This document shows, piece after piece, positions 2,852 to 14,303 of a DNA stretch of 15,932 nt. The translations under genes were made by a program, and so were the position numbers. This stretch comes from a virus: the UHGV virus genome UHGV-0132370, one strand, 5' to 3'. Position 1 is the stretch's first letter. The number at the start of each line of letters is the position of its first letter. Below the pieces are notes generated by a model. The model did no database searches, was not told the DNA's origin, and was given only the letters and a program-made list of their open reading frames with translations.

Positions 2852-2869
2852 TGTATCAGCACTGATACA
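2852..2869 (+). promoter_or_regulatory. TGT-N12-ACA dyad (tgtatcagcactgataca), candidate Ogr/Delta-type late activator site of the promoter preceding V
   Basis: Perfect 8+8 inverted repeat tgtatcag/ctgataca in the only sizeable intergenic gap (2848..2915) between S and V, where P2 carries its late promoter for the V operon. Confidence 0.6.
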
Positions 2870-3850: not shown

Positions 3851-4745
3851 CCTTTCGCAGTTGCCTGCGCCGCAGATTGTGGATGTGCCGGACTTTGAGA
3901 CGCTGCTTGCCGAACGCAAGGCCGAATTTGTTGCGCTTCATCCGAAAGATGAGCAGGAAGCAGTGATCCGCACGCTGGAACTGGAATCTGAACCCGTCAC
4001 CAAATTGCTTCAGGAGAACGCTTACCGTGAGTTGCTTCTGCGCCAGCGCATTAACGAAGCCGCGCATGCTGTGATGGTGGCTTACGCGATGGGCGGCGAT
4101 CTTGACCAGCTCGCTGCCAACTACAACGTGAAACGCCTGACGGTGACGCCTGCTGATAATGACGCTGTGCCACCCGTTGCGGCTGTGATGGAAAGCGATG
4201 AAGCGTTACGCCTGCGTGTGCCTGCGGCTTTTGAAGGGCTTTCGGTTGCGGGGCCAACCGCAGCTTATGAATTTCATGCCCGAAGCGCCGACGGTCGGGT
4301 GGCGGATGCCAGTGCAACCAGCCCGGCACCTGCAGAGGTGGTGCTTACGGTCCTAAGCCGTGAAGGCGACGGAACAGCAGAAAAAGACCTGCTGGACGTG
4401 GTGGAAAAAGCTCTGAACAGTGAGAACGTTCGCCCGGTGGCTGACCGTCTGACGGTTCGCAGCGCAGAAATCATCCCGTATCGCGTGGAAGCCACCATTT
4501 TTCTCTATCCGGGGCCGGAAGCAGAGCCGGTAATGGCAGCGGCAAAAGCCAGCCTGCAGAAATACATCGCCAGTCAGACGCGGCTTGGTAGGGATATTCG
4601 CCGTAGCGCCATCTTTGCCGCCCTGCATGTTGAGGGTGTACAGCGTGTGGAGCTGGCTTCGCCGCTGGCGGATGTGGTTTTGAACAAAACGCAGGCGGCA
4701 TCATGTACGGAGTGGAGCGTGACCAACGGGGGAACGGATGAATAG
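3837..4745 (+). CDS. J: Baseplate assembly protein J
   Basis: ATG at 3837 preceded by CAGGAG (3824-3829), 302 aa like P2 gpJ; the track ORF starting at 3798 includes an unlikely upstream extension. Confidence 0.85.
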   Translation: MAVIDLSQLPAPQIVDVPDFETLLAERKAEFVALHPKDEQEAVIRTLELESEPVTKLLQENAYRELLLRQRINEAAHAVMVAYAMGGDLDQLAANYNVKRLTVTPADNDAVPPVAAVMESDEALRLRVPAAFEGLSVAGPTAAYEFHARSADGRVADASATSPAPAEVVLTVLSREGDGTAEKDLLDVVEKALNSENVRPVADRLTVRSAEIIPYRVEATIFLYPGPEAEPVMAAAKASLQKYIASQTRLGRDIRRSAIFAALHVEGVQRVELASPLADVVLNKTQAASCTEWSVTNGGTDE

Positions 4746-5343
4746 TCTGCTGCCATCGGGGTCAACTTCACTGGAGCGCCGACTGGCGCAAACGTGCAGC
4801 GGGATTTCTGATCTGCAGGTGCCGCTGCGTGACTTGTGGAATCCGGCTACCTGCCCGGTCAGCTTCCTGCCTTATCTCGCCTGGGCGTTCTCTGTGGATC
4901 GCTGGGACGAAGGCTGGACAGAAAGCGTCAAGCGCCAGGTGGTGAAGGATGCTTTTTATATTCATCAGCATAAAGGGACCACCAGTGCCGTGCGGCGGGT
5001 GGTGGAGCCGTTCGGCTTTCTGATCCGCATTATTGAGTGGTGGCAAACCGGAGAGGCACCGGGCACGTTTCGCCTGGATATCGGCGTGCAGGACCAGGGC
5101 ATCACTGAAGATACCTATCTGGAACTTGAGCGACTGATAAGCGATGCCAAACCATGTAGCCGCCACATGATCGGCATGTCCATCAATCTGCAGACCAGCG
5201 GCCCGTATTGGGTGGGAGCCGCCAGCTATCTTGGCGAAGAAATCACGATCTATCCGTATATCAACGAAACGATTATTTCCGGTGGCACCGCGCATGAAGG
5301 CGGGGCGGTCCATGTTATTGACACAATGAGAGTGAATCCATGA
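4738..5343 (+). CDS. I: Baseplate/tail protein I
   Basis: 201-aa ORF overlapping J stop and H start; position as P2 gpI. Confidence 0.8.
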   Translation: MNSLLPSGSTSLERRLAQTCSGISDLQVPLRDLWNPATCPVSFLPYLAWAFSVDRWDEGWTESVKRQVVKDAFYIHQHKGTTSAVRRVVEPFGFLIRIIEWWQTGEAPGTFRLDIGVQDQGITEDTYLELERLISDAKPCSRHMIGMSINLQTSGPYWVGAASYLGEEITIYPYINETIISGGTAHEGGAVHVIDTMRVNP

Positions 5344-6746
5344 GCACAAAATTTTATACCCTGCTGACGGATATTGGCGCGGCGAAACTTGCCAGCGCCG
5401 CCGCGCTCGGTGTGCCGCTAAAAATTACCCATATGGCGGTGGGCGATGGCGGCGGAGTATTGCCAACGCCGGACGCAAAGCAGACGGCACTGGTAAATGA
5501 GAAACGCCGGGCTGCGCTGAATATGCTCTATATCGACCCGCAGAACAGCAGCCAGATTATTGCTGAACAGGTGATCCCTGAAAACGAGGGCGGTTGGTGG
5601 ATACGTGAAGTGGGCCTGTTTGATGAGTCCGGGGCATTGATTGCCGTGGGCAACTGCCCGGAAAGCTATAAGCCGCAACTGGCTGAAGGCAGCGGGCGTA
5701 CCCAGACCGTGCGTATGGTGTTGATTACCAGCAGCACGGACAATATCACCCTGAAAATCGACCCTGCCGTAGTGCTGGCAACCCGCAAGTATGTGGATGA
5801 TAAGGTACTGGAGCTGAAGGTGTACGCGGATGATCAGATGGCAAAACATCTTGCCGCACCGGACCCGCATTCACAGTATGCACAGAAAGAAAGTCCTACG
5901 TTTACCGGGACACCCAAAGCGCCAACGCCAGCGGCGGGGAATAACACCACGCAGGTTGCGACCACCGCGTTTGTTCAGGAGGCACTGACGGCTCTTATTA
6001 ATGGTGCGCCAGCCACGCTGGACACGCTGAAAGAAATAGCCGTAGCCATTAACAATGATCCGAAATTCAGTACCACCATTAACAATGCGCTGGCACTGAA
6101 AGCGCCGCTGTCGAGTCCGGCACTCACCGGAACGCCAACAGCCCCCACGGCGGCGCAGTCGGTCAACAATACACAGATTGCCACCACGGCTTTTGTGAAA
6201 TCGGCGATTGCGGCAATGGTGGGTTCTGCACCTGCGGCACTGGATACACTGAACGAACTGGCGGCGGCGCTGGGGAATGACCCGAACTTTGCCACGACAA
6301 TGCTTAATGCACTGGCAGGTAAACAACCGCTGGACAATACGCTGACTAATTTGAGTGGAAAGGATGTTGCTGGTCTTCTCGCATACCTTGGTTTGGGAGA
6401 AGCGGCGAAAAGGGATGTGGGCACAGGAGATAATCAGATACCGGATATGGGAGCATTCGCTTCTGGTTCGGGATGGTTCAGGCTACCAGGTGGATATATT
6501 GTTCAGTTTGGCACTTTTTCAGGAAACACGACCCGCTTTATCAGTGGACACTTCCCTATACCATTCCCTAATCAGCCGATGGTTTCAGTCAGTGTTATGT
6601 CTGATGCCGTTCAGTCAGACCCGTCGATTCCTGCCCCGCAGGTTTTGTCTGTAAATTTTGAACGTATCAGTAATTCAGCGTGGCGTGTGGCAACCAGTGA
6701 TATCTCACAGCAATACAGATTCAGTTATATTTCGATAGGACGGTAG
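5340..6746 (+). CDS. H: Tail fibre protein H (constant N-terminal part 5340..6389 plus currently expressed variable C-terminal domain 6390..6746)
   Basis: 468-aa ORF with N-terminus MSTKFYTLLTDIGAAKLA..., internal tandem ~73-aa tail-fibre repeats, and a compositionally distinct (AT-richer) 3' end that begins at the left crossover site. Confidence 0.9.
   Translation: MSTKFYTLLTDIGAAKLASAAALGVPLKITHMAVGDGGGVLPTPDAKQTALVNEKRRAALNMLYIDPQNSSQIIAEQVIPENEGGWWIREVGLFDESGALIAVGNCPESYKPQLAEGSGRTQTVRMVLITSSTDNITLKIDPAVVLATRKYVDDKVLELKVYADDQMAKHLAAPDPHSQYAQKESPTFTGTPKAPTPAAGNNTTQVATTAFVQEALTALINGAPATLDTLKEIAVAINNDPKFSTTINNALALKAPLSSPALTGTPTAPTAAQSVNNTQIATTAFVKSAIAAMVGSAPAALDTLNELAAALGNDPNFATTMLNALAGKQPLDNTLTNLSGKDVAGLLAYLGLGEAAKRDVGTGDNQIPDMGAFASGSGWFRLPGGYIVQFGTFSGNTTRFISGHFPIPFPNQPMVSVSVMSDAVQSDPSIPAPQVLSVNFERISNSAWRVATSDISQQYRFSYISIGR
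6376..6401. repeat. Left crossover-like site (26 bp, ttctcgcatacc-tt-ggtttgggagaa) inside H; 6388..6401 is a 14-bp perfect inverted repeat of 8255..8268
   Basis: 12-2-12 dyad resembling gix/hix/cix invertase crossover sites; the reverse complement of 6388..6401 (ttctcccaaaccaa) is identical to 8255..8268. Confidence 0.75.
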
Positions 6747-6748
6747 AA

Positions 6749-7189
6749 ATGCAGAAATATATTTTCAGTGCCGATAAAAATGCGTTTTTCCCTGTGGAGC
6801 TTAAAATCGCTTATCAGGAATCCGGCGAATGGCCCGATGATGGAATCGAAATTGACGACACTGTTGCTGCCGAATTTATGAAGGAAGCACCAGAAGGAAA
6901 ATACAGAGGTGTCATCGACGGAATGCCTGCATGGATTGATATTCCACCGCCAACTCATGAGGAACAAATTGCCGCAGCCGAACTGAAAAAGCAGCAATTG
7001 ATTAATCAGGTCAACGAATACATAAACAGTAAGCAATGGCCTGGTAAAGCGGCGATTGGTCGCCTGAAAGGTGAGGAACTGGTGCAATATAATTTGTGGC
7101 TGGATTATCTGGACGCACTGGAACTGGTCGATACTTCCGGTGCGCCAGATATTGAATGGCCTACGCCTCCGGCAGTTCAGGCCAGATGA
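6749..7189 (+). CDS. G: Tail fibre assembly chaperone (P2 gpG-like / Tfa), partner of the current H C-terminus
   Basis: 146-aa ORF 3 bp after H stop; C-terminal motif LVDTSGAPDIEWPTPPA shared with the convergent - strand paralogue. Confidence 0.8.
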   Translation: MQKYIFSADKNAFFPVELKIAYQESGEWPDDGIEIDDTVAAEFMKEAPEGKYRGVIDGMPAWIDIPPPTHEEQIAAAELKKQQLINQVNEYINSKQWPGKAAIGRLKGEELVQYNLWLDYLDALELVDTSGAPDIEWPTPPAVQAR

Positions 7190-7763
7190 CATCAGGCGCG
7201 GTGCTGGTATCTGTTGCCGTCACCGCGTCAATATAATCCAGCACAGCGTTAAGTCGGGTTGTTTCTGCCTGCGTCAGCTTCCGTCCGGCCTGTAATTTCA
7301 GTTGAATCAGACTGATGGAAGACATTGCTGCATCAATCAGTGACTGGCGCTGTGCTTCTGCCGCTTCTACTGCGGCGCTATGCTGTGCCTCAGTATCCGT
7401 CACCCATTTCTCACCATCCCATTTATCATATGGCGTTAACGGGGCGATAGTGGTTGTATTTTCAGGGTAATCACCCAGAGATGTGATTTCTTTCGATTCT
7501 CCTGTTTCGGTGCTATAGATGATTTCACCGCGATGGTCTGGCACATATTCCCATGAGTTAAAATCTGCAGAGCGGCAGATTGCATAACCGGCTTTATGTG
7601 TACCTGGTGCATCTAAGCATGAATACGCCGGAATACCGACACCCACAGCAAGGTATTCGGTTGATGTGGAAAGATATTCCTTCGTCTCAGCATCAAAATT
7701 ATAAACGGTAATGTTTCCTGCCTTTGTAGTAATGAGTTCGCTATTTAATACGGCTTTATTCAT
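7161..7763 (-). CDS. Alternative tail fibre assembly chaperone (tfa'), partner of the silent fibre cassette
   Basis: 200-aa ORF on - strand, convergent with G (3' ends overlap 7161..7189); C-terminus DTSTAPDVIWPELPEA parallels the G C-terminus; start ATG overlaps the stop of the upstream - strand cassette (TGATG). Confidence 0.75.
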   Translation of the reverse strand: MNKAVLNSELITTKAGNITVYNFDAETKEYLSTSTEYLAVGVGIPAYSCLDAPGTHKAGYAICRSADFNSWEYVPDHRGEIIYSTETGESKEITSLGDYPENTTTIAPLTPYDKWDGEKWVTDTEAQHSAAVEAAEAQRQSLIDAAMSSISLIQLKLQAGRKLTQAETTRLNAVLDYIDAVTATDTSTAPDVIWPELPEA

Positions 7764-8268
7764 CAGGCTGCCCTCACGATATAGTTAAATGCGACGTTGC
7801 GCGGGTAACCTTCTTGGTTTCCAAAGGTGGGGCTCTGCGTAGTCACAGAAGTAGCAGAGTTGTTGTTTGTCCCGCCGCTGCCGCCAAGTGATCGGATAAC
7901 GCCGCCGTCGCCTGCTGTCGCTGCTGGCCCTAACTCCCTACCGTTCTGCGATGGTACAGTTGTACTAGTTGGGATGCTGCCGCTAGCCGATGTCCAAATT
8001 TCCAAGCCGTGGACGTGCGATCCTGGAGACCATCCCTGGCTAGACCCTATCGAACGCCCTGGATCAACCCCTCGCCCATCATCCCATCCACGAATAAATT
8101 CACCGCGCAGGTCTGGCAGCAAAAGACCGGGGTAAGCGAGAGCAAGCTTCGGATATTGGGAGGCGATAAATGGCGCACCGTTGCATTTCAACCAGCCTGT
8201 TGGCGGAGTTGCTAAAGGCCACGGAACAGGGACACCAACAGGTAATGCAGAGCCTTCTCCCAAACCAA
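7763..8268 (-). CDS. Alternative tail-fibre C-terminal cassette (H'), 167 codons, lacks own promoter and start; in frame with H constant part after inversion
   Basis: - strand frame reads GLGEGSALPVGVPVPWPLATPPTGWLKCNGAPF... starting inside the right crossover site; the GLGE codons (ggtttgggagaa) are the same as the GLGE codons of H at the left site. Confidence 0.7.
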
Positions 8269-8280
8269 CGTTTAAGAAAA
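8255..8280. repeat. Right crossover-like site (26 bp, ttctcccaaacc-aa-cgtttaagaaaa), inverted relative to the left site
   Basis: 12-2-12 organisation; 8255..8268 is the exact reverse complement of 6388..6401; lies about 55 bp upstream of the invertase start. Confidence 0.75.
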
Positions 8281-8335
8281 TGCAGAGGTAACAGCTAACT
8301 GGCATCATCTCCGGTTTTTATTCAGGGGGATGATC

Positions 8336-8902
8336 ATGCTTATTGGCTATGTACGCGTGTCAACAAATGACCAGAACACCGATTTGCAACGTAATGCACT
8401 GAACTGCGCGGGATGTGAGCGGATTTTTGAGGACAAAATCAGTGGCACTAAGTCCGACAGACCGGGGCTGAAAAAACTACTCAGGACACTATCGGCAGGA
8501 GACACGCTGGTTGTCTGGAAGCTGGACAGGTTGGGGCGCAGTATGCGGCATCTTGTTACGCTGATAGAAGAGTTGCGCCAGCGTGGTGTGAATTTCAGAA
8601 GCCTGACTGACAGTATTGATACCAGTACCCCAATGGGCCGTTTCTTTTTTCATGTCATGGGTGCCCTAGCTGAAATGGAACGCGAACTGATAGTTGAACG
8701 TACCAGGGCGGGGCTGGCTGCAGCTCGTGATAAAGGCAGAGTAGGTGGACGCCGTCCTAAGTTGACCACCGAACAGTGGGCACAGATTGGACGCTTACTC
8801 GAGGCCGGAGAATCAAGACAGCGTATTGCACTGATTTTTGATGTGGGTGTTTCCACAATTTATAGAAAATTTCCGGCAAATAAGAGTAATGAATCCCCCT
8901 GA
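8336..8902 (+). CDS. Serine DNA invertase, Gin/Hin/Cin/Pin family
   Basis: N-terminus MLIGYVRVSTNDQNTDLQRNAL... with the catalytic serine in YVRVSTNDQ, plus VVWKLDRLGRSMRHL and SLTDSIDTSTPMGRFFFHVMGALAEMERELIVERT, and a C-terminal HTH-like tail; ATG 8336 has better spacing to GGGGGA (8325-8330) than the in-frame ATG 8330. Confidence 0.9.
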   Translation: MLIGYVRVSTNDQNTDLQRNALNCAGCERIFEDKISGTKSDRPGLKKLLRTLSAGDTLVVWKLDRLGRSMRHLVTLIEELRQRGVNFRSLTDSIDTSTPMGRFFFHVMGALAEMERELIVERTRAGLAAARDKGRVGGRRPKLTTEQWAQIGRLLEAGESRQRIALIFDVGVSTIYRKFPANKSNESP

Positions 8903-8950
8903 ATCAGCATTATGTTGATTATCCCTGCAAGCAGACAAATACCGTTATTT

Positions 8951-8968
8951 TGTGTGAATAACGACACA
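8951..8968 (+). promoter_or_regulatory. TGT-N12-ACA dyad (tgtgtgaataacgacaca), candidate late activator site of the promoter preceding FI
   Basis: Dyad about 85 bp upstream of the FI ATG in the 142-bp gap after the invertase; spacing leaves roughly a 30-nt leader containing CAGGAGG (9029-9035). Confidence 0.55.
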
Positions 8969-9044
8969 ACTGCGCTTAGCTGTTTGTCAGGCACAATCAC
9001 TTCAACATAGGGCGAAGCCTAATCCAATCAGGAGGTTCGCCACT

Positions 9045-10217
9045 ATGGCTCAGGATTACCACCACGGGGTGCGCGTTGTTGAAGTCAACGAAGGCACCCG
9101 ATCTATTACCACGGTGAGCACCGCCATCGTGGGTATGGTCTGCACGGGCGATGATGCCGATGCAAAAATGTTTCCTCTTAATAAACCCGTGCTGATCACT
9201 GATGTGCTGACTGCCAGCGGTAAAGCGGGTGAGTCCGGTACTCTGGCCCGTTCGCTGGATGCCATCGCTGACCAGGCAAAACCCGTGACCATTGTTGTGC
9301 GTGTGCCGCAGGGTGAAACGGAAGACGAAACCACGACCAATATCATCGGCGCAGTGACTGCTGAAGGTAAAAAAACAGGTATGAAAGCCCTGTTATCTGC
9401 CCAGTCACAGCTCGGCGTTAAACCGCGCATTCTCGGCGTGCCAGGCCACGACACCAAGGCGGTAGCTACTGAGTTGCTGAGCGTGGCGCAAAGCCTGCGT
9501 GGATTTGCTTACCTGTCAGCGTATGGCTGCAAGACAGTGCAGGAGGCGATCACTTACCGCGAAAACTTCAGCCAGCGCGAAGGGATGCTGATCTGGCCTG
9601 ACTTTACTGGCTGGGACACGGTGCTGAATGCCGAAGCAACGGCATATGCCACCGCCCGTGCGCTTGGTCTGCGCGCCAAAATTGACGAGCAGACCGGATG
9701 GCACAAAAGCCTGTCCAATGTGGGCGTGAACGGTGTCACCGGAATTTCTGCAGATGTGTTCTGGGATCTGCAGGACCCGGCAACCGATGCAGGTCTGCTG
9801 AACCAGAACGACGTCACCACGCTTGTGCGTAAAGACGGTTTCCGCTTCTGGGGGTCCCGCTGCCTGAGTGATGACCCGCTCTTTGCCTTCGAAAACTACA
9901 CCCGCACGGCGCAGGTGCTGACGGACACGATGGCAGAAGCACACATGTGGGCGGTGGATAAACCGCTTAACCCGTCGCTGGCCCGCGACATTATCGAAGG
10001 TATCCGCGCCAAAATGCGCAGACTGGTCAGTCAGGGCTATCTCATTGGTGGTGATTGCTGGCTGGATGAGTCGGTGAACGACAAAGACACGCTGAAAGCC
10101 GGAAAACTCACCATCGACTACGACTACACGCCAGTGCCGCCACTTGAAAACCTGATGCTGCGTCAGCGCATCACCGATCAGTACCTGGTGAATTTCGCCA
10201 GCCAGGTCAGCGCGTAA
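9045..10217 (+). CDS. FI: Contractile tail sheath protein FI
   Basis: 390-aa ORF beginning [19 protein letters not shown]..., closely matching my recollection of P2 FI throughout (e.g. [31 protein letters not shown]); strong RBS. Confidence 0.92.
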
Positions 10218-10226
10218 GGGGACAAC

Positions 10227-10742
10227 ATGGCTTTACCACGCAAATTAAAACACCTGAACCTGTTTAACGACGGGAACAACTGGCAGGGGATCGTTGAGTC
10301 GCTGACGCTGCCGAAATTTACCCGCAAATATGAGAAGTATCGCGGCGGCGGAATGCCGGGTGCGGTGGATGTGGATCTGGGGCTTGATGACAGTGCGCTG
10401 GACACAGAATTTTCCATTGGTGGTACTGAATTGCTGCTGTTTAAACAGATGGGTAAAGCCACGGTGGATGGCATCCAGCTGCGCTTTACCGGCTCTATTC
10501 AGCGTGACGATACCGGGGAAGTGCAGGCCGTGGAGCTTGTCGTGCGTGGACGTCACAAAGAAGTGGATTCCGGCGAGTGGAAGACGGGCGAAAGCAACAC
10601 CACCAAAGTGACCAGTACCAACAGCTACGCGAAGCTGACCATCAATGGTGAGGTGCTCTATGAAGTGGACCTTATCAACATGGTGGAAATTGTGGACGGT
10701 GTGGACCTGATGGAAGCGCACCGCAACGCCCTCGGCCTCTGA
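10227..10742 (+). CDS. FII: Tail tube protein FII
   Basis: 171-aa ORF 9 bp after FI; size and position as P2 FII. Confidence 0.88.
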   Translation: MALPRKLKHLNLFNDGNNWQGIVESLTLPKFTRKYEKYRGGGMPGAVDVDLGLDDSALDTEFSIGGTELLLFKQMGKATVDGIQLRFTGSIQRDDTGEVQAVELVVRGRHKEVDSGEWKTGESNTTKVTSTNSYAKLTINGEVLYEVDLINMVEIVDGVDLMEAHRNALGL

Positions 10743-11099: not shown

Positions 11100-11233
11100 C
11101 GGTTGACGATCTGGTGGCAGATATCGCCACCATTTTTCACTGGCCGCCATCCGTTACTGACGTTATGCCGCTGACCGAAGTGCTGGAATGGCGGTATAAA
11201 GCGATTCAGAGAAGCGGGGCCAACGATGAGTGA
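10797..11233 (+). CDS. E': Tail assembly chaperone E+E' (-1 programmed frameshift product; frame changes at 11054..11060, stop at 11231..11233)
   Basis: Heptamer T_TTT_TTG (11054..11060) in the E frame; the -1 frame is open from there to TGA at 11231-11233, overlapping the T start at 11226. Confidence 0.7.
11054..11060 (+). other. Slippery heptamer T_TTT_TTG for -1 ribosomal frameshift (E to E')
   Basis: X_XXY_YYZ pattern in the zero frame of E (codons act-ttt-ttg), with the -1 frame open downstream. Confidence 0.7.
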
Positions 11234-14200
11234 TAACAACCTGCGTCTGCAGGTCATTCTTAATGCGGTTGACAAGCTCACCCGCCCATTTCGATCTGCG
11301 CAGGCCAGTTCAAGAGAACTGGCTGCTGCTGTCAAAAAATCCCGCGATGCAATAAAGCAGCTTGATCAGGCCGGGAGCAGTCTGGACAGCTTCCGAAAGC
11401 TGCAGGCAGAAAATCAGAAATTAGGCGACAGGCTGAACTATGCCCGCCAGCGTGCAAATTTGCTCAGTCAGGAACTGGGAGCGATGGGGCCGCCTTCGCA
11501 ACGTCAGGTTGTTGCTCTGGGCCGTCAACGGCTGGCTGTTCAGCGCCTGGAAGAACGCCAGAAAAAGCTGCAGCAGCAGACGGCGCTTGTGCGTGCTGAA
11601 CTGTACCGGGCGGGAATTTCTGCGAAAGACGATGCGGGAGCAACTGCCCGTTTAGCCCGTGAAACATCACGTTATAACCAGGAACTTTCGAAACAGGAGG
11701 CGCGGCTGAAGCGACTGGGGGAAGCTCAGCGCAGGATGAATGCAGCGCGTGCCAGTTATGCCCGTTCGCTGGAGGTGCGTGATCGTATTGCAGGTGCCGG
11801 AGCCACCACCACGGCTGCAGGGCTGGCAATGGGTGCGCCAGTGATGGCGGCAGTAAAAAGCTATACCAGCATGGAAGATGCCATGAAAGGTGTGGCAAAG
11901 CAGGTCAATGGTCTGCGTGACGATAATGGCAACCGCACTGCACGTTTTTATGAAATGCAGGATGCCATCAAGGCTGCCAGCGAACAGTTGCCGATGGAAA
12001 ACGGTGCGGTGGACTTCGCTGCACTGGTTGAAGGTGGTGCGCGCATGAACGTCGCAAACCCTGACGACAGCTGGGAAGATCAGAAACGTGACCTGCTGGC
12101 CTTCGCCAGTACGGCAGCAAAGGCGGCAACAGCCTTTGAGCTGCCAGCGGATGAACTGTCAGAAAGTCTGGGGAAAATCGCCCAGCTCTACAAAATCCCC
12201 ACCCGCAATATTGAACAGCTCGGTGATGCGCTGAACTATCTGGATGATAACGCCATGTCGAAAGGGGCAGACATCATTGATGTGATGCAACGTCTGGGCG
12301 GTGTGGCTGACCGTCTGGATTATCGTAAAGCGGCGGCGCTGGGTTCCACCTTCCTGACACTGGGCGCTGCGCCAGAGGTTGCAGCCAGTGCAGCAAACGC
12401 GATGGTGCGTGAATTGTCCATTGCCACCATGCAAAGCAAGAGTTTCTTTGAAGGGATGAATCTGCTGAAACTCAATCCTGAAGTGATTGAAAAGCAGATG
12501 ACGAAGGATGCGATGGGAACCATCCAGCGCGTGCTGGAGAAGGTAAACGCGCTGCCGCAGGACAAGCGCCTGTCTGCCATGACTATGTTGTTTGGTAAAG
12601 AGTTTGGCGATGACGCGGCGAAACTGGCAAACAACCTGCCGGAACTGCAGCGTCAGTTAAAACTGACAGCGGGCAATGATGCGCTCGGCTCCATGCAGAA
12701 AGAATCCGACATTAACAAGGATTCACTTTCTGCGCAGTGGTTGCTGGTCAAAACCGGAGCGCAGAACACCTTCAGCAGCCTGGGCGAAACGCTGCGCCAG
12801 CCGCTGATGGATATTCTGTACACGGTGAAAAGCGTCACGGGGGCGTTGCGTCGCTGGGTGGAAGCTAACCCGGAACTGACAGGCACACTGATGAAAGCAT
12901 CGGCTGTTGTGGCTGCGGTTACCGTCGGCCTCGGCACCTTAGCGGTGGCGCTGGCTGCAGTGCTGGGGCCGCTGGCAGTGATCCGTCTGGGATTCTCTGT
13001 GTTGGGTATCAAAACGTTATCTTCCGTTACGGCAGCAGTAACTCGAACCAGCAGCGCGTTGTCCTGGCTGGCTGGCGCACCACTGGCACTGCTGCGACGC
13101 GGGCTTGCTTCATCGGGCAACGCCGCAGGTTTACTTACTGCGCTGTTGTCGTCTTTGCGCCGCACGGCATCACTGACGGGAAATGTCCTGAAAACTGTAG
13201 CAGGTGCGCCAGTTGCACTTTTGCGGTCTGGATTATCCGGTTTACGTGCTGTTGCTGTGATGTTTATGAATCCTCTGGCGGTACTGCGCGGTGGACTGGC
13301 AGCCGCAGGCGCGTTGCTGCGAGTGCTTGCATCTGGTCCGCTGGCGATGCTGCGCGTTGCCCTGTATGCCATATCTGGTCTGTTAGGTGCTCTGCTTAGT
13401 CCGATAGGTCTTGTGGTTACTGCACTGGCGGGTGTGGCGCTGGTTGTCTGGAAATACTGGCAACCCATCACCGCATTTCTCGGTGGCGTGGTGGAAGGAT
13501 TCAAAGCGGCGGCAGGTCCCATCAGTGCAGCGTTTGAACCACTTAAGCCCGTGTTCCAGTGGATTGGCGACAAAGTGCAGGCGCTGTGGGGCTGGTTTAC
13601 TGATCTGCTGACGCCTGTTAAGTCGACCTCTGCCGAACTGCAGAGCGCAGCGGCAATGGGGCGACGATTCGGGGAGGCACTGGCGGAAGGGCTGAATATG
13701 GTCATGCATCCGCTGGACTCCCTGAAATCCGGCGTTTCCTGGTTGCTGGATAAACTCGGCATTGTCAGTAAAGAGGCTGCAAAGGCGAAACTGCCGGAAA
13801 GCGTGACGCGTCAGCAACCTGCGACGGTGAATGCAGACGGTAAAGTGATGATGCCATCGGGTGGTTTTCCGTCATGGGGATATGGCTTTGCGGGGATGTA
13901 TGACAGCGGCGGCTATATCCCGCGCGGGCAGTTTGGCATCGTCGGTGAAAACGGGCCGGAAATTGTCAACGGCCCGGCAAACGTGACCAGCCGGAGAAAT
14001 ACCGCTGCACTGGCTGCGGTTGTTGCCGGAATGATGGGCGTTGCTGCCGCGCCTACAGAGCTTCCATCGTTACATCCTTTGGCACTTCCCGCGAAAGGCG
14101 GCGAAGCGATGGTGAGTCGTGCAGCCACTGTGCCGCCCGTTCAACGGATTGAGGCACCGACGCAGATCATCATTCAGACGCAGCCAGGACAAAGTGCGCA

Positions 14201-14303
14201 GGATATTGCGCGGGAGGTGGCCCGCCAGCTTGATGAACGTGAACGCAGGCTGAAGGCAAAAGCTAGGAGTAACTACAGCGATCAGGGGGGATACGACGCA
14301 TGA
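11226..14303 (+). CDS. T: Tail tape measure protein T (1025 aa)
   Basis: Long ORF after E/E'; coiled-coil-prone N-terminal third, central and C-terminal Ala/Leu/Gly-rich hydrophobic repeats; position as P2 gpT. Confidence 0.9.
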   Translation: MSDNNLRLQVILNAVDKLTRPFRSAQASSRELAAAVKKSRDAIKQLDQAGSSLDSFRKLQAENQKLGDRLNYARQRANLLSQELGAMGPPSQRQVVALGRQRLAVQRLEERQKKLQQQTALVRAELYRAGISAKDDAGATARLARETSRYNQELSKQEARLKRLGEAQRRMNAARASYARSLEVRDRIAGAGATTTAAGLAMGAPVMAAVKSYTSMEDAMKGVAKQVNGLRDDNGNRTARFYEMQDAIKAASEQLPMENGAVDFAALVEGGARMNVANPDDSWEDQKRDLLAFASTAAKAATAFELPADELSESLGKIAQLYKIPTRNIEQLGDALNYLDDNAMSKGADIIDVMQRLGGVADRLDYRKAAALGSTFLTLGAAPEVAASAANAMVRELSIATMQSKSFFEGMNLLKLNPEVIEKQMTKDAMGTIQRVLEKVNALPQDKRLSAMTMLFGKEFGDDAAKLANNLPELQRQLKLTAGNDALGSMQKESDINKDSLSAQWLLVKTGAQNTFSSLGETLRQPLMDILYTVKSVTGALRRWVEANPELTGTLMKASAVVAAVTVGLGTLAVALAAVLGPLAVIRLGFSVLGIKTLSSVTAAVTRTSSALSWLAGAPLALLRRGLASSGNAAGLLTALLSSLRRTASLTGNVLKTVAGAPVALLRSGLSGLRAVAVMFMNPLAVLRGGLAAAGALLRVLASGPLAMLRVALYAISGLLGALLSPIGLVVTALAGVALVVWKYWQPITAFLGGVVEGFKAAAGPISAAFEPLKPVFQWIGDKVQALWGWFTDLLTPVKSTSAELQSAAAMGRRFGEALAEGLNMVMHPLDSLKSGVSWLLDKLGIVSKEAAKAKLPESVTRQQPATVNADGKVMMPSGGFPSWGYGFAGMYDSGGYIPRGQFGIVGENGPEIVNGPANVTSRRNTAALAAVVAGMMGVAAAPTELPSLHPLALPAKGGEAMVSRAATVPPVQRIEAPTQIIIQTQPGQSAQDIAREVARQLDERERRLKAKARSNYSDQGGYDA

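Follow-up and report, generated by a model that had tools for sequence, protein, structure and literature searches.

A Gin-Family DNA Invertase Gene and a Probable Tail-Fibre Inversion Switch Upstream of the Sheath Operon of a P2-like Prophage

The analysed stretch of DNA (hereafter, the window) comprises 15,932 nucleotides of the UHGV virus genome UHGV-0132370 and represents the late region (tail genes) of an Elveevirus/Fels-2-type, P2-like prophage. The tail-fibre gene H (5340–6746, forward strand, 468 aa) includes a constant N-terminal part (5340–6375) with the Phage_tail_fib N-terminal domain, according to Pfam, and a variable C-terminus A, which is in the expressed position (6402–6746, forward strand) and contains the Gp53-like_C domain. 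It is followed by the gene of tail-fibre assembly chaperone A (6749–7189, forward strand; Pfam Caudo_TAP, E-value 9e-34). The reverse strand carries the gene of a second chaperone, B (7161–7763; Pfam Caudo_TAP, E-value 1.6e-32), silent in the present orientation, and a 181-aa ORF without its own start codon (7763–8254), which encodes an alternative fibre C-terminus B with the Pfam Collar domain. Further downstream are a DNA invertase gene (8336–8902, forward strand), the tail sheath gene FI (9045–10217, forward strand), which is the first gene of the F operon, and FII (10227–10742). The FI protein contains Pfam sheath domains and is 68% identical to P2 FI. An earlier note on this DNA had placed an invertase between the tail-fibre genes and FI on the strand of the late genes, in agreement with these positions.

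The gene at 8336–8902 encodes a Gin-family DNA invertase of 188 aa, a small serine recombinase of the Gin/Cin/Pin/Fin group. Its length is within the range of approximately 180–200 aa expected of Gin, Hin, Cin, and Pin invertases. A Pfam search revealed the Resolvase domain (PF00239, E-value 7e-53) and, at the C-terminus, the HTH_7 domain (PF02796, E-value 1.5e-15), located at residues 140–183 of the 190-aa translation that begins with the ATG at 8330, or residues 138–181 of the 188-aa protein. The level of identity with Mu Gin is about 75% over residues 1–184 (PDB 3uj3/4m6f, E-value 3e-93); by tblastn, the values are 75% for Gin and 79% for Cin. The catalytic serine is located within YVRVSTNDQ, corresponding to the family pattern YxRVSTxxQ, and MLIGYVRVSTNDQ of the invertase aligns with Gin residues 1–13. 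An NCBIfam search found no specific equivalog, and an Rfam search of 6000–9400 matched no family.

The upstream ATG (8330) is lost in many relatives, which carry GGGGATTGATCATG variants, and the homologues begin with M/V-L-I-G-Y (Gin, Cin, and pinE-type relatives) or M/V-Q-I-G-Y (Fin and three others). Thus, the true start of the invertase is the ATG at 8336. A Shine–Dalgarno sequence, GGGGGA (8325–8330, forward strand), can be read 5 nt before this codon, and its G-rich block is kept in relatives. A 12-bp perfect inverted repeat (8320–8331/8893–8904) brackets the invertase ORF. About 22 loci have it in perfect form and others in a version shortened to 6–9 bp; the Peduovirus-type, Mu, P1, and pinE lineages lack it. 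The repeat is probably fortuitous and lineage-specific, and we attribute no role to it.

Two 26-bp recombination sites, which are the arms of the inverted repeat I1, were found on either side of the two C-termini. The left site, TTCTCGCATACC-TT-GGTTTGGGAGAA (6376–6401, core TT at 6388–6389), is located inside H; the right site, TTCTCCCAAACC-AA-CGTTTAAGAAAA (8255–8280, core AA at 8267–8268), ends 55 bp before the invertase ORF. The sites are inverted relative to each other and are composed of 12-bp half-sites around the 2-bp core, the inner halves being identical. The 12-2-12 layout of the left site is that of the Mu site, and the right site aligns with Mu gixR. A third, partial copy (I3, 7642–7659) lies inside a chaperone gene and was judged to be a chance match.

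The two sites bracket a segment of 1.9 kb containing both alternative fibre C-termini and their chaperones, with the constant part of H outside it. When the segment is inverted in silico, C-terminus B fuses in frame to the constant part, forming a 517-aa H′ with the 200-aa chaperone B directly behind it. A Caudo_TAP chaperone is thus located behind the fibre gene in each orientation (468-aa H or 517-aa H′). In this predicted arrangement, a constant N-terminus outside the segment and two opposed C-terminus/chaperone pairs fusing in frame can be recognized, as in a switch of the Mu G-segment type.

A comparison of related genomes indicates that the segment between the sites is likely to invert. 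In the Klebsiella phage KP12, a 99.7% identical segment lies in the opposite orientation between identical flanks, and the breakpoints are at the site cores. In this phage, the recombination site joins C-terminus B to the constant part of H, although the reading frame is interrupted within B. In the Kp4845-2 group, the segment (94% identity) is flipped between collinear flanks, again with breakpoints at the cores. The 80 IMG/VR loci compared include the segment in either orientation and with numerous combinations of cassettes, next to an invertase that is 97–99% identical. The constant part of H is 94–99% conserved in the closest relatives and 72–74% in Peduovirus-type loci, while the C-terminus varies. 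The right site is kept upstream of the invertase in approximately 70 of about 76 distinct upstream sequences of relatives.

The 5′ end of the invertase gene contains a stretch (8354–8425) that is 72–83% identical to gin, cin, and fin and whose homologue in P1 cin (gene nt 19–90) is annotated as the recombinational enhancer. A Fis-like motif, GCGCGGGATGTGAGC (8406–8420), is common to the window, gin, and cin. This homology and the single motif suggest a putative Fis-dependent recombinational enhancer. Synonymous-site conservation in the stretch is slightly raised, an effect too marginal to be accepted as an enhancer footprint.

Upstream of FI, a TGT-N12-ACA dyad (TGTGTGAATAACGACACA, 8951–8968, forward strand) was found exactly where the earlier note had reported it, 94 nt before the FI ATG; it is taken to mark an activator-dependent late promoter, P_F. 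The full dyad is 6+6, TTGTGT-N8-ACACAA. The bare TGT-N12-ACA pattern occurs four times in the window versus 4.33 expected and is not rarer than chance, so that the case for the dyad is built on position and conservation. Two of the four matches are just upstream of the operon-starting genes V and FI, and the other two are inside coding sequence. The dyad upstream of V (TGTATCAGCACTGATACA, 2852–2869, forward strand; V ATG at 2916) served as an internal control for P_F. Its centre is 55.5 nt from the ATG, the same distance as in the annotated pV activator site of P2 (10239–10266, V ATG at 10308).

All 80 FI relatives have the dyad, 87–94 nt before the FI ATG; in P2, where both the pF activator site and the start are annotated, the distance is 91 nt. 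In the window's own lineage, 34 distinct intergenic sequences all show the 94-nt distance; L085, a more remote relative, shows 91 nt. Substitutions, among them a symmetric replacement of G..C by A..T, are confined to the inner bases, and TGT and ACA never change. Owing to this occurrence in every relative at P2-like spacing, the proposal of the earlier note that FI and FII keep their own activator-dependent promoter is well supported, and P_F is predicted to be an Ogr-type late promoter like those of P2, 186, and P4, in which the dyad lies at about −55. An Ogr-like gene follows D in Cartapus (96% identical) and Fels-2. The window ends in gene D, leaving the activator gene outside it, so that dependence on Ogr is deduced from the relatives. 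The strong ribosome-binding site announced for FI is AGGAGG (9030–9035, forward strand), as read from the sequence 9 nt before the ATG. A further idea, of low probability, is that the unit exchanged horizontally in these phages is bounded exactly by the left site (6401) and the FI start codon (9044); if so, P_F would travel with the switch.

The earlier note had further suggested that the invertase is transcribed independently from 8281–8335. Conservation in this region points to a candidate extended −10 element, TGGCATCAT (TG-n-CATCAT, 8300–8308, forward strand), with a predicted start at about 8315. TGGCAT(C/G)AT is retained unchanged by every close relative as well as by Mu gin, Fels-2 fin, and the pinE-type, L075, L085, and L088 lineages, while the adjacent positions have diverged. 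Across seven diverged lineages, the only sizeable invariant blocks from the recombination site to the ribosome-binding site are TGGCAT(C/G/T)A(T/A) and A.AATG; the remaining invariant bases are a TTT run and GG. In L085, the recombination site is not adjacent, yet the distance from the TGGCAT motif to the start codon is unchanged. A sigma-70 scan of 8281–8335 detected no consensus promoter and did not call TGGCATCAT, the −35 region being poor; for this reason, we infer the promoter of the invertase from conservation, which makes it plausible. A literature search for a gin or pinE promoter returned nothing usable. The region after the stop codon (8903–8950) shows no terminator-like structure (fold of −5.7 kcal/mol, z −0.84, no T-run).

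A hairpin at 8297–8316 was called by the scan and is a possible intrinsic terminator; however, such calls occur at chance level (3 versus 2.6 expected) and the predicted structure has little stability (−4.9 kcal/mol, z −1.1). Its counterparts in L075 and L085 are more stable, and Mu lacks it. A helix that would sequester the Shine–Dalgarno sequence (8304–8312/8326–8334, −13.4 kcal/mol, z −1.8) was rejected as a conserved structure: in 26 distinct relatives, it shows zero compensatory changes, and the pairing is no better than in shuffled sequences. It is conceivable, though improbable, that 8281–8335 is a conserved insulated promoter, with TGGCAT.AT in or beside a small hairpin that is followed by a T-run. 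Transcripts arriving from the segment in either direction would then be attenuated and those starting inside the element would escape, making the invertase dosage independent of both segment orientation and late transcription. In any case, the TGGCAT.AT block is a candidate promoter for an invertase family whose promoter is poorly documented.

Among the other explanations, the one that survives best is that the invertase lacks its own promoter and is expressed only when the late V-W-J-I-H-tfa transcript, or antisense transcripts across the segment, read through into it. The invertase shares its orientation with the late genes, a consensus promoter is lacking in 8281–8335, and no convincing terminator is present in 7189–8336; a terminator search found none strong between the late V-H-tfa transcript and the invertase, so read-through from this transcript could occur. 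We nevertheless consider this explanation unlikely. Mu has an identical gin layout, and gin is expressed in the Mu prophage. TGGCAT.AT persists even where the genes upstream differ considerably (Mu, e14-type, L085). Furthermore, inversion occurs in lysogens, where the late promoters are off: it was observed in P2-like prophages of EPEC cultures (PMC4272514), and Fin, whose gene adjoins the inverted fibre segment of Fels-2 (PMC7953296), is active in LT2 lysogens (PMC12529663).

The position of the invertase corresponds to the Z/fun slot of P2, where fun(Z) lies between G and FI on the opposite strand, and the earlier note had regarded it as an accessory-insertion hotspot occupied by a moron. 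The first part of this idea is right, since the slot content varies among close relatives. In 73 FI-anchored relatives with enough upstream sequence, the slot is empty or contains Acyl_transf_3, a DNA methylase, a membrane protein, a truncated invertase, or an invertase. Of the 40 loci whose FI is 97% identical or more, 28 carry the invertase, as do five of the 33 loci with an FI identity of 90–93%; it is absent from Kp4860-7. The G–FI slot is likewise described as a variability hotspot in the literature (bioRxiv 10.1101/2024.10.15.618418). In the window, it holds the alternative fibre cassette (7161–8254) besides the invertase.

The second part would make the gene an independent accessory one, unrelated to the late genes and with its own transcription unit. 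Patchy presence at a fixed slot, unrelated cargo in close relatives, the G+C content of the block (43–53% versus 54–59% in the flanks), and the candidate promoter are all consistent with this. On the other hand, the recombination site 55 bp from the gene has its partner in H, relatives carry the intervening segment flipped, and the site near the gene is retained in most distinct upstream sequences, as given above. Mu gin and Fels-2 fin are placed in the same way, and the invertase gene has no terminator downstream. Moreover, a moron has a function outside the structural and lytic programme of the phage, whereas this recombinase serves the phage's own tail fibre and not lysogenic conversion. 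A moron is therefore quite improbable here, and the invertase is better described as the recombinase of the adjacent switch. That the system is a frozen relic, with an inactive invertase or sites and orientation differences left by older events, is the least probable explanation: the basis for inversion of the present element is comparative and some relatives have truncated invertases and half-deleted sites (L029, L045, L140, L146), but here the ORF is intact with the catalytic serine motif and a full-length Gin match, neither 26-bp site is damaged and their cores match, the two fibre/chaperone pairs are complete and in frame, and the 99.7% identical segment is known in the other orientation.

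Taken together, the gene at 8336–8902 is very probably the Gin/Fin-type invertase of the neighbouring tail-fibre switch in a P2-like prophage. In the proposed mechanism, invertase dimers would bind the two inverted 26-bp sites, in H and upstream of the invertase, and, if the analogy with Gin, Hin, and Cin holds, would be assisted by a Fis-bound enhancer at the 5′ end of the gene that encodes them. Strand exchange at the 2-bp cores would then flip the 1.9-kb segment. In each orientation, the constant 5′ part of H would be joined to one of the two receptor-binding C-termini with the matching chaperone behind it, and with two orientations, a lysogen population would release phages of two host ranges. 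The switch and its invertase would share the variable fibre–FI slot, while the F operon (FI, FII, and onwards) would retain its own Ogr-type late promoter. The invertase is most likely produced at a low constitutive level from the weak extended −10 promoter, which would permit flipping in the lysogen, where the late promoters are silent.

Tail-fibre inversion switches are a common and already described arrangement in P2-like phages, and the significance of the present one beyond correct annotation is small. An appropriate annotation of the region would name a tail-fibre inversion switch of the Gin/Fin type and its recombination sites, describe the reverse ORF of 181 aa as an alternative fibre C-terminus without a start codon, and assign the FI promoter to the P2-type late promoters. 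The segment may appear in either orientation in assemblies. For users of the prophage or of a derived tailocin, one lysogen can yield particles with two receptor specificities.

When comparing the window with the G segment of Mu, a similar organization can be noted: the constant fibre N-terminus is outside, two C-termini with chaperones are inside (S-U-U′-S′-gin), and the invertase lies outside the right site and is transcribed away from the segment. The start codon lies 67 bp from the segment boundary in Mu and 68 bp from it in the window, the invertases are about 75% identical, and TGGCATGAT is conserved upstream. However, the Mu segment is 3 kb long versus 1.9 kb, com and mom are located downstream of gin instead of a sheath operon with an Ogr-type promoter, and the phage backbones are unrelated. 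The Cin protein of the P1 C segment belongs to the same invertase family (79%, tblastn), and its annotated enhancer has a homologous stretch in the window; unlike the invertase gene in the window, whose 5′ end faces the segment, cin points to the segment and its stop codon overlaps cixL. P2 shares the chromosomal slot immediately upstream of P_F, with content that varies in relatives. In P2, it contains fun(Z), a lysogenic-conversion gene of 1.6 kb on the reverse strand that has no relation to fibre function and is preceded by a V-operon terminator, whereas the slot in the window has no clear terminator and contains a fibre cassette and a forward-strand recombinase.

Fels-2 of Salmonella LT2 (STM2702–STM2706) is also a P2-like phage and has the gene order I-H-tfa-tfa′-H′-invertase (fin)-FI-FII, a TGT-N12-ACA dyad 90 nt before FI, and TGGCATGAT with a T-run upstream of the invertase. 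Inversion between LT2 and LT7 is documented, with Fin active in lysogens. It differs from the window in genus (Felsduovirus), in its fibre cassettes, in the invertase–FI spacer (102 bp versus 142 bp), and in the site core (GA versus AA). The order fibre-tfa-tfa′-fibre′-DNA invertase-sheath is also annotated in the Escherichia phages pro483 (Peduovirus) and Cartapus (Elveevirus). The pro483 invertase is longer (197 aa), its frame runs through the P2-type activator site, and the gap before FI is 59 bp, while Cartapus is 96–97% identical to the window across the region.

The window corresponds to the late region of a P2-like prophage. V starts at 2916 and is followed by W and J, and I starts at 4738. 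The H tail fibre gene (5340–6746) and a tail-fibre assembly gene (6749–7189) are followed by two fibre ORFs on the reverse strand (7161–7763 and 7763–8308) and by the forward-strand invertase ORF (8336 or 8330 to 8902; 188 or 190 aa). Then come the FI sheath gene (9045–10217), FII (10227–10742), E/E', T (11226–14303), U and D. The level of identity over the whole window is 95–97% with the Escherichia phages 500465-1 and Cartapus (Elveevirus) and with a group of Klebsiella prophages.

The invertase ORF matches the Pfam families Resolvase (E = 7e-53) and HTH_7 (E = 1.5e-15). Residues 1–184 of its product, including the catalytic YVRVSTNDQ motif, align with the crystallised Gin invertase of phage Mu (E = 3e-93, about 75% identity). 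The start codon is at 8336 rather than 8330, since the ATG at 8330 is missing from many relatives. A candidate recombinational enhancer in the gene is suggested by homology to the stretch annotated in P1 and by one Fis-like motif shared with gin and cin. No Rfam family match was found in 6000–9400. A perfect 12-bp inverted repeat, ATTCAGGGGGAT / ATCCCCCTGAAT at 8320–8331 and 8893–8904, flanks the ORF and overlaps its ribosome-binding site and stop codon. About 22 related loci, among them L057 with changes on both arms, have the repeat in perfect form; in other loci it is shortened to 6–9 bp, and the Peduovirus-type, Mu, P1 and pinE lineages lack it. It was set aside as confined to a lineage and only partly kept.

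The invertase is part of a tail-fibre inversion switch, a link that was absent from the earlier note, which had placed the gene correctly. In the region's longest inverted repeat, 6376–6402 pairs with 8254–8280. Read as 26-bp recombination sites, the left one, inside H (6376–6401), is TTCTCGCATACC-TT-GGTTTGGGAGAA, and the right one (8255–8280) is TTCTCCCAAACC-AA-CGTTTAAGAAAA; their inner halves are identical and their 2-bp cores match. The segment between them consists of two opposed pairs, each comprising a fibre C-terminus and a Caudo_TAP chaperone. The orientation present in the window encodes a 468-aa H with a 146-aa chaperone; flipping the segment in silico at the cores produces a 517-aa H' in frame, with a 200-aa chaperone directly behind it. 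Because this inversion fuses the segment in frame with H, the 181-aa reverse ORF is an alternative fibre C-terminus without a start. At the overlap of the convergent chaperone genes there is a strong hairpin (7180–7260, −29.8 kcal/mol, z −2.2) with an inverted repeat at 7099–7116 / 7225–7242 and without a T-run, which might act as a brake where transcription runs into the segment's silent half. The reverse-strand chaperone gene contains, at 7642–7659, a third and weaker copy of the site, which is 83% complementary to 6380–6397 and probably arose by chance. Three-site switches are known in P2-like phages (PMC4272514).

Comparison of related loci indicates that the segment has flipped in nature. 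The Klebsiella phage KP12 contains window positions 6385–8268 at 99.7% identity in the opposite orientation, as judged against the invertase, sheath and constant H flanks, and the inversion junctions fall exactly on the site cores. In the Kp4845-2 group, collinearity extends over the whole window, yet the segment is reversed. In 80 IMG/VR loci retrieved via the invertase, the segment occurs in either orientation and with many cassette combinations, next to an invertase that is 97–99% identical. Inversion has been shown in P2-like prophages in EPEC cultures (PMC4272514), fibre inversion adjoining fin has been described in Fels-2 (PMC7953296), and Fin is active in LT2 lysogens (PMC12529663). The KP12 record (OM835953.1, clone KP12_3) is filed under Vequintavirinae, yet the clone is a P2-like tail region that differs little from the window. 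A frameshift or a sequencing error breaks its alternative fibre C-terminus into two ORFs. Upstream of the invertase, two loci (L029 and L045) have unrelated sequence in place of the right site's inner half, and in a third (L055) the outer half of the right site is the left-site version (GGTATGCGAGAA). These changes look like footprints of aberrant recombination.

The slot that the earlier note regarded as a place of accessory gene insertion is indeed variable, since its contents differ among 73 FI-anchored loci with at least 1.2 kb of upstream sequence; the lack of variability that would have spoken against the note is thus not seen. The invertase was found in 28 of the 40 loci with an FI identity of 97% or more, and in 5 of the 33 where it is 90–93%. 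In the remaining loci, the slot is empty or contains Acyl_transf_3 genes on either strand, an N6_N4 DNA methylase, a membrane protein or a truncated invertase (kept in L140 and L146). The acyltransferase, methylase and membrane-protein genes lie about 0.8–2.1 kb upstream of FI in L097, L125, L128, L129, L156, L161, L165 and L170. Close relatives have four different Acyl_transf_3 membrane acyltransferases, in either direction; the methylase occurs alone or downstream of an invertase (L156), and the membrane protein (205–222 aa) has no Pfam match. The term "moron", however, is a misnomer for the invertase, because the enzyme serves the phage's own fibre, has the recombination site with it in about 70 of the 76 distinct sequences found upstream, and has no detectable terminator after its gene.

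In the comparison with the invertase-less Kp4860-7 (L005; Elveevirus 4LV2017), which has the order H-tfa-terminator-dyad-FI, nucleotide homology ends exactly at 6401, where the left site ends, and restarts at 9044, the base preceding the FI ATG (L005 positions 2193 and 3176). Thus, the exchanged unit is the variable fibre end together with the invertase and the spacer of P_F, the FI late promoter, and not the invertase alone. The G+C content of this block is 43–53% versus 54–59% in the flanks. A good left site is kept in H of Kp4860-7 at 2170–2195 (TTCTCGCATACC-TT-GGTTTAGGGGAA, encoding LLAYLGLGE) despite the missing invertase, so the left site may be a recombination hotspot for gaining new fibre ends.

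The proposal that the invertase has its own promoter in 8281–8335 found mixed support: a sigma-70 scan of this interval detected no promoter, but a conserved block makes it plausible. Seven diverged lineages were aligned (the window, pinE-type, L075, L085, L088, Mu gin and Fels-2 fin); the pinE-type upstream sequence lies beside pinE-annotated genes in 949 of 5,426 E. coli genomes. From the recombination site to the ribosome-binding site, the invariant blocks are A.AATG (8277–8282) and TGGCAT.A (8300–8307), and the only other invariant bases are a TTT run and GG. TG-G-CATCAT fits a candidate extended −10 element, with TG at −15/−14, A at −11 and T at −7, from which transcription would start near 8315, about 20 nt before the ATG at 8336. 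The second block appears tied to expression and not to recombination, since L085, without an adjacent site, keeps the same distance from it to the start codon. Read-through into the invertase is possible, as there is no convincing terminator between 7189 and 8336. Nevertheless, inversion occurs in lysogens while the late promoters are silent, which makes independent low-level transcription the most likely reading, and one we hold with reasonable confidence. A hairpin with a T-run at 8297–8316 was dropped as weak in the window, and a helix masking the ribosome-binding site was dropped for showing no covariation.

Both features cited earlier for an FI promoter were recovered: the dyad TGTGTGAATAACGACACA at 8951–8968 and a strong ribosome-binding site, AGGAGG, 9 nt ahead of the FI ATG. 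Bare TGT-N12-ACA occurs in the window at chance level (4 found, 4.33 expected), and two of the four copies lie a short way upstream of V and FI. That of V, TGTATCAGCACTGATACA at 2852–2869, is a near-perfect 8+8 palindrome centred 55.5 nt from the V ATG (2916), the same distance as the annotated pV activator site of P2, and is presumably the P_V of this phage. The FI dyad begins 94 nt upstream of the ATG, a distance fixed in 34 distinct intergenic sequences of the window's own lineage; in L085, which is more distant, it is 91 nt. The outer TGT and ACA are constant while the inner bases vary. When the L015 and L014 intergenic sequences are aligned with 8951–8968, some relatives show TGTATG...GATACA in place of TGTGTG...GACACA, a symmetric change in both arms that keeps the palindrome. 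The P_F spacers of the window and Kp4860-7 are unrelated, yet both contain TGTGT-N8-ACACA. A dyad lies 87–94 nt before FI in all 80 FI relatives, irrespective of the upstream content, and 90 nt before it in Fels-2. In P2, TGT-N12-CCA starts 91 nt before FI inside the annotated pF site, and the pF transcription start was mapped 25 nt upstream of the ATG. The predicted activator-dependent P_F is well supported by comparison, through the conserved dyad, its P2-like spacing and the Ogr-like gene found after D in Cartapus and Fels-2.

Taken together, this is a Gin/Fin-type invertase with an invertible tail-fibre segment in the P2-like Z/fun hotspot, followed by a conserved P2-type F-operon late promoter. 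The finding is real but ordinary: near-identical elements are already annotated in public phage genomes, and the phenomenon is in the literature, DNA invertases with adjacent inversions being frequent in the Z/fun hotspot (preprint, 10.1101/2024.10.15.618418). The earlier interpretation is partly supported, in that its slot, the retained dyad and a plausible promoter of the invertase's own all hold. The position assigned earlier agrees with P2, where fun(Z) lies on the reverse strand between G and FI, with a V-operon terminator on one side and the annotated pF activator site on the other. In pro483 and other Peduovirus-type relatives, a 197-aa invertase ORF runs through the P2-type site. The Mu site has the same 12-2-12 architecture and aligns with the right site of the window. 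The S-U-U'-S'-gin layout of Mu is also the same, with the invertase outside the right boundary, transcribed away from it and starting 67 bp from it (68 bp in the window), whereas cin of P1 is oriented the other way. The order in Fels-2, H-tfa-tfa'-H'-invertase-FI, is identical.
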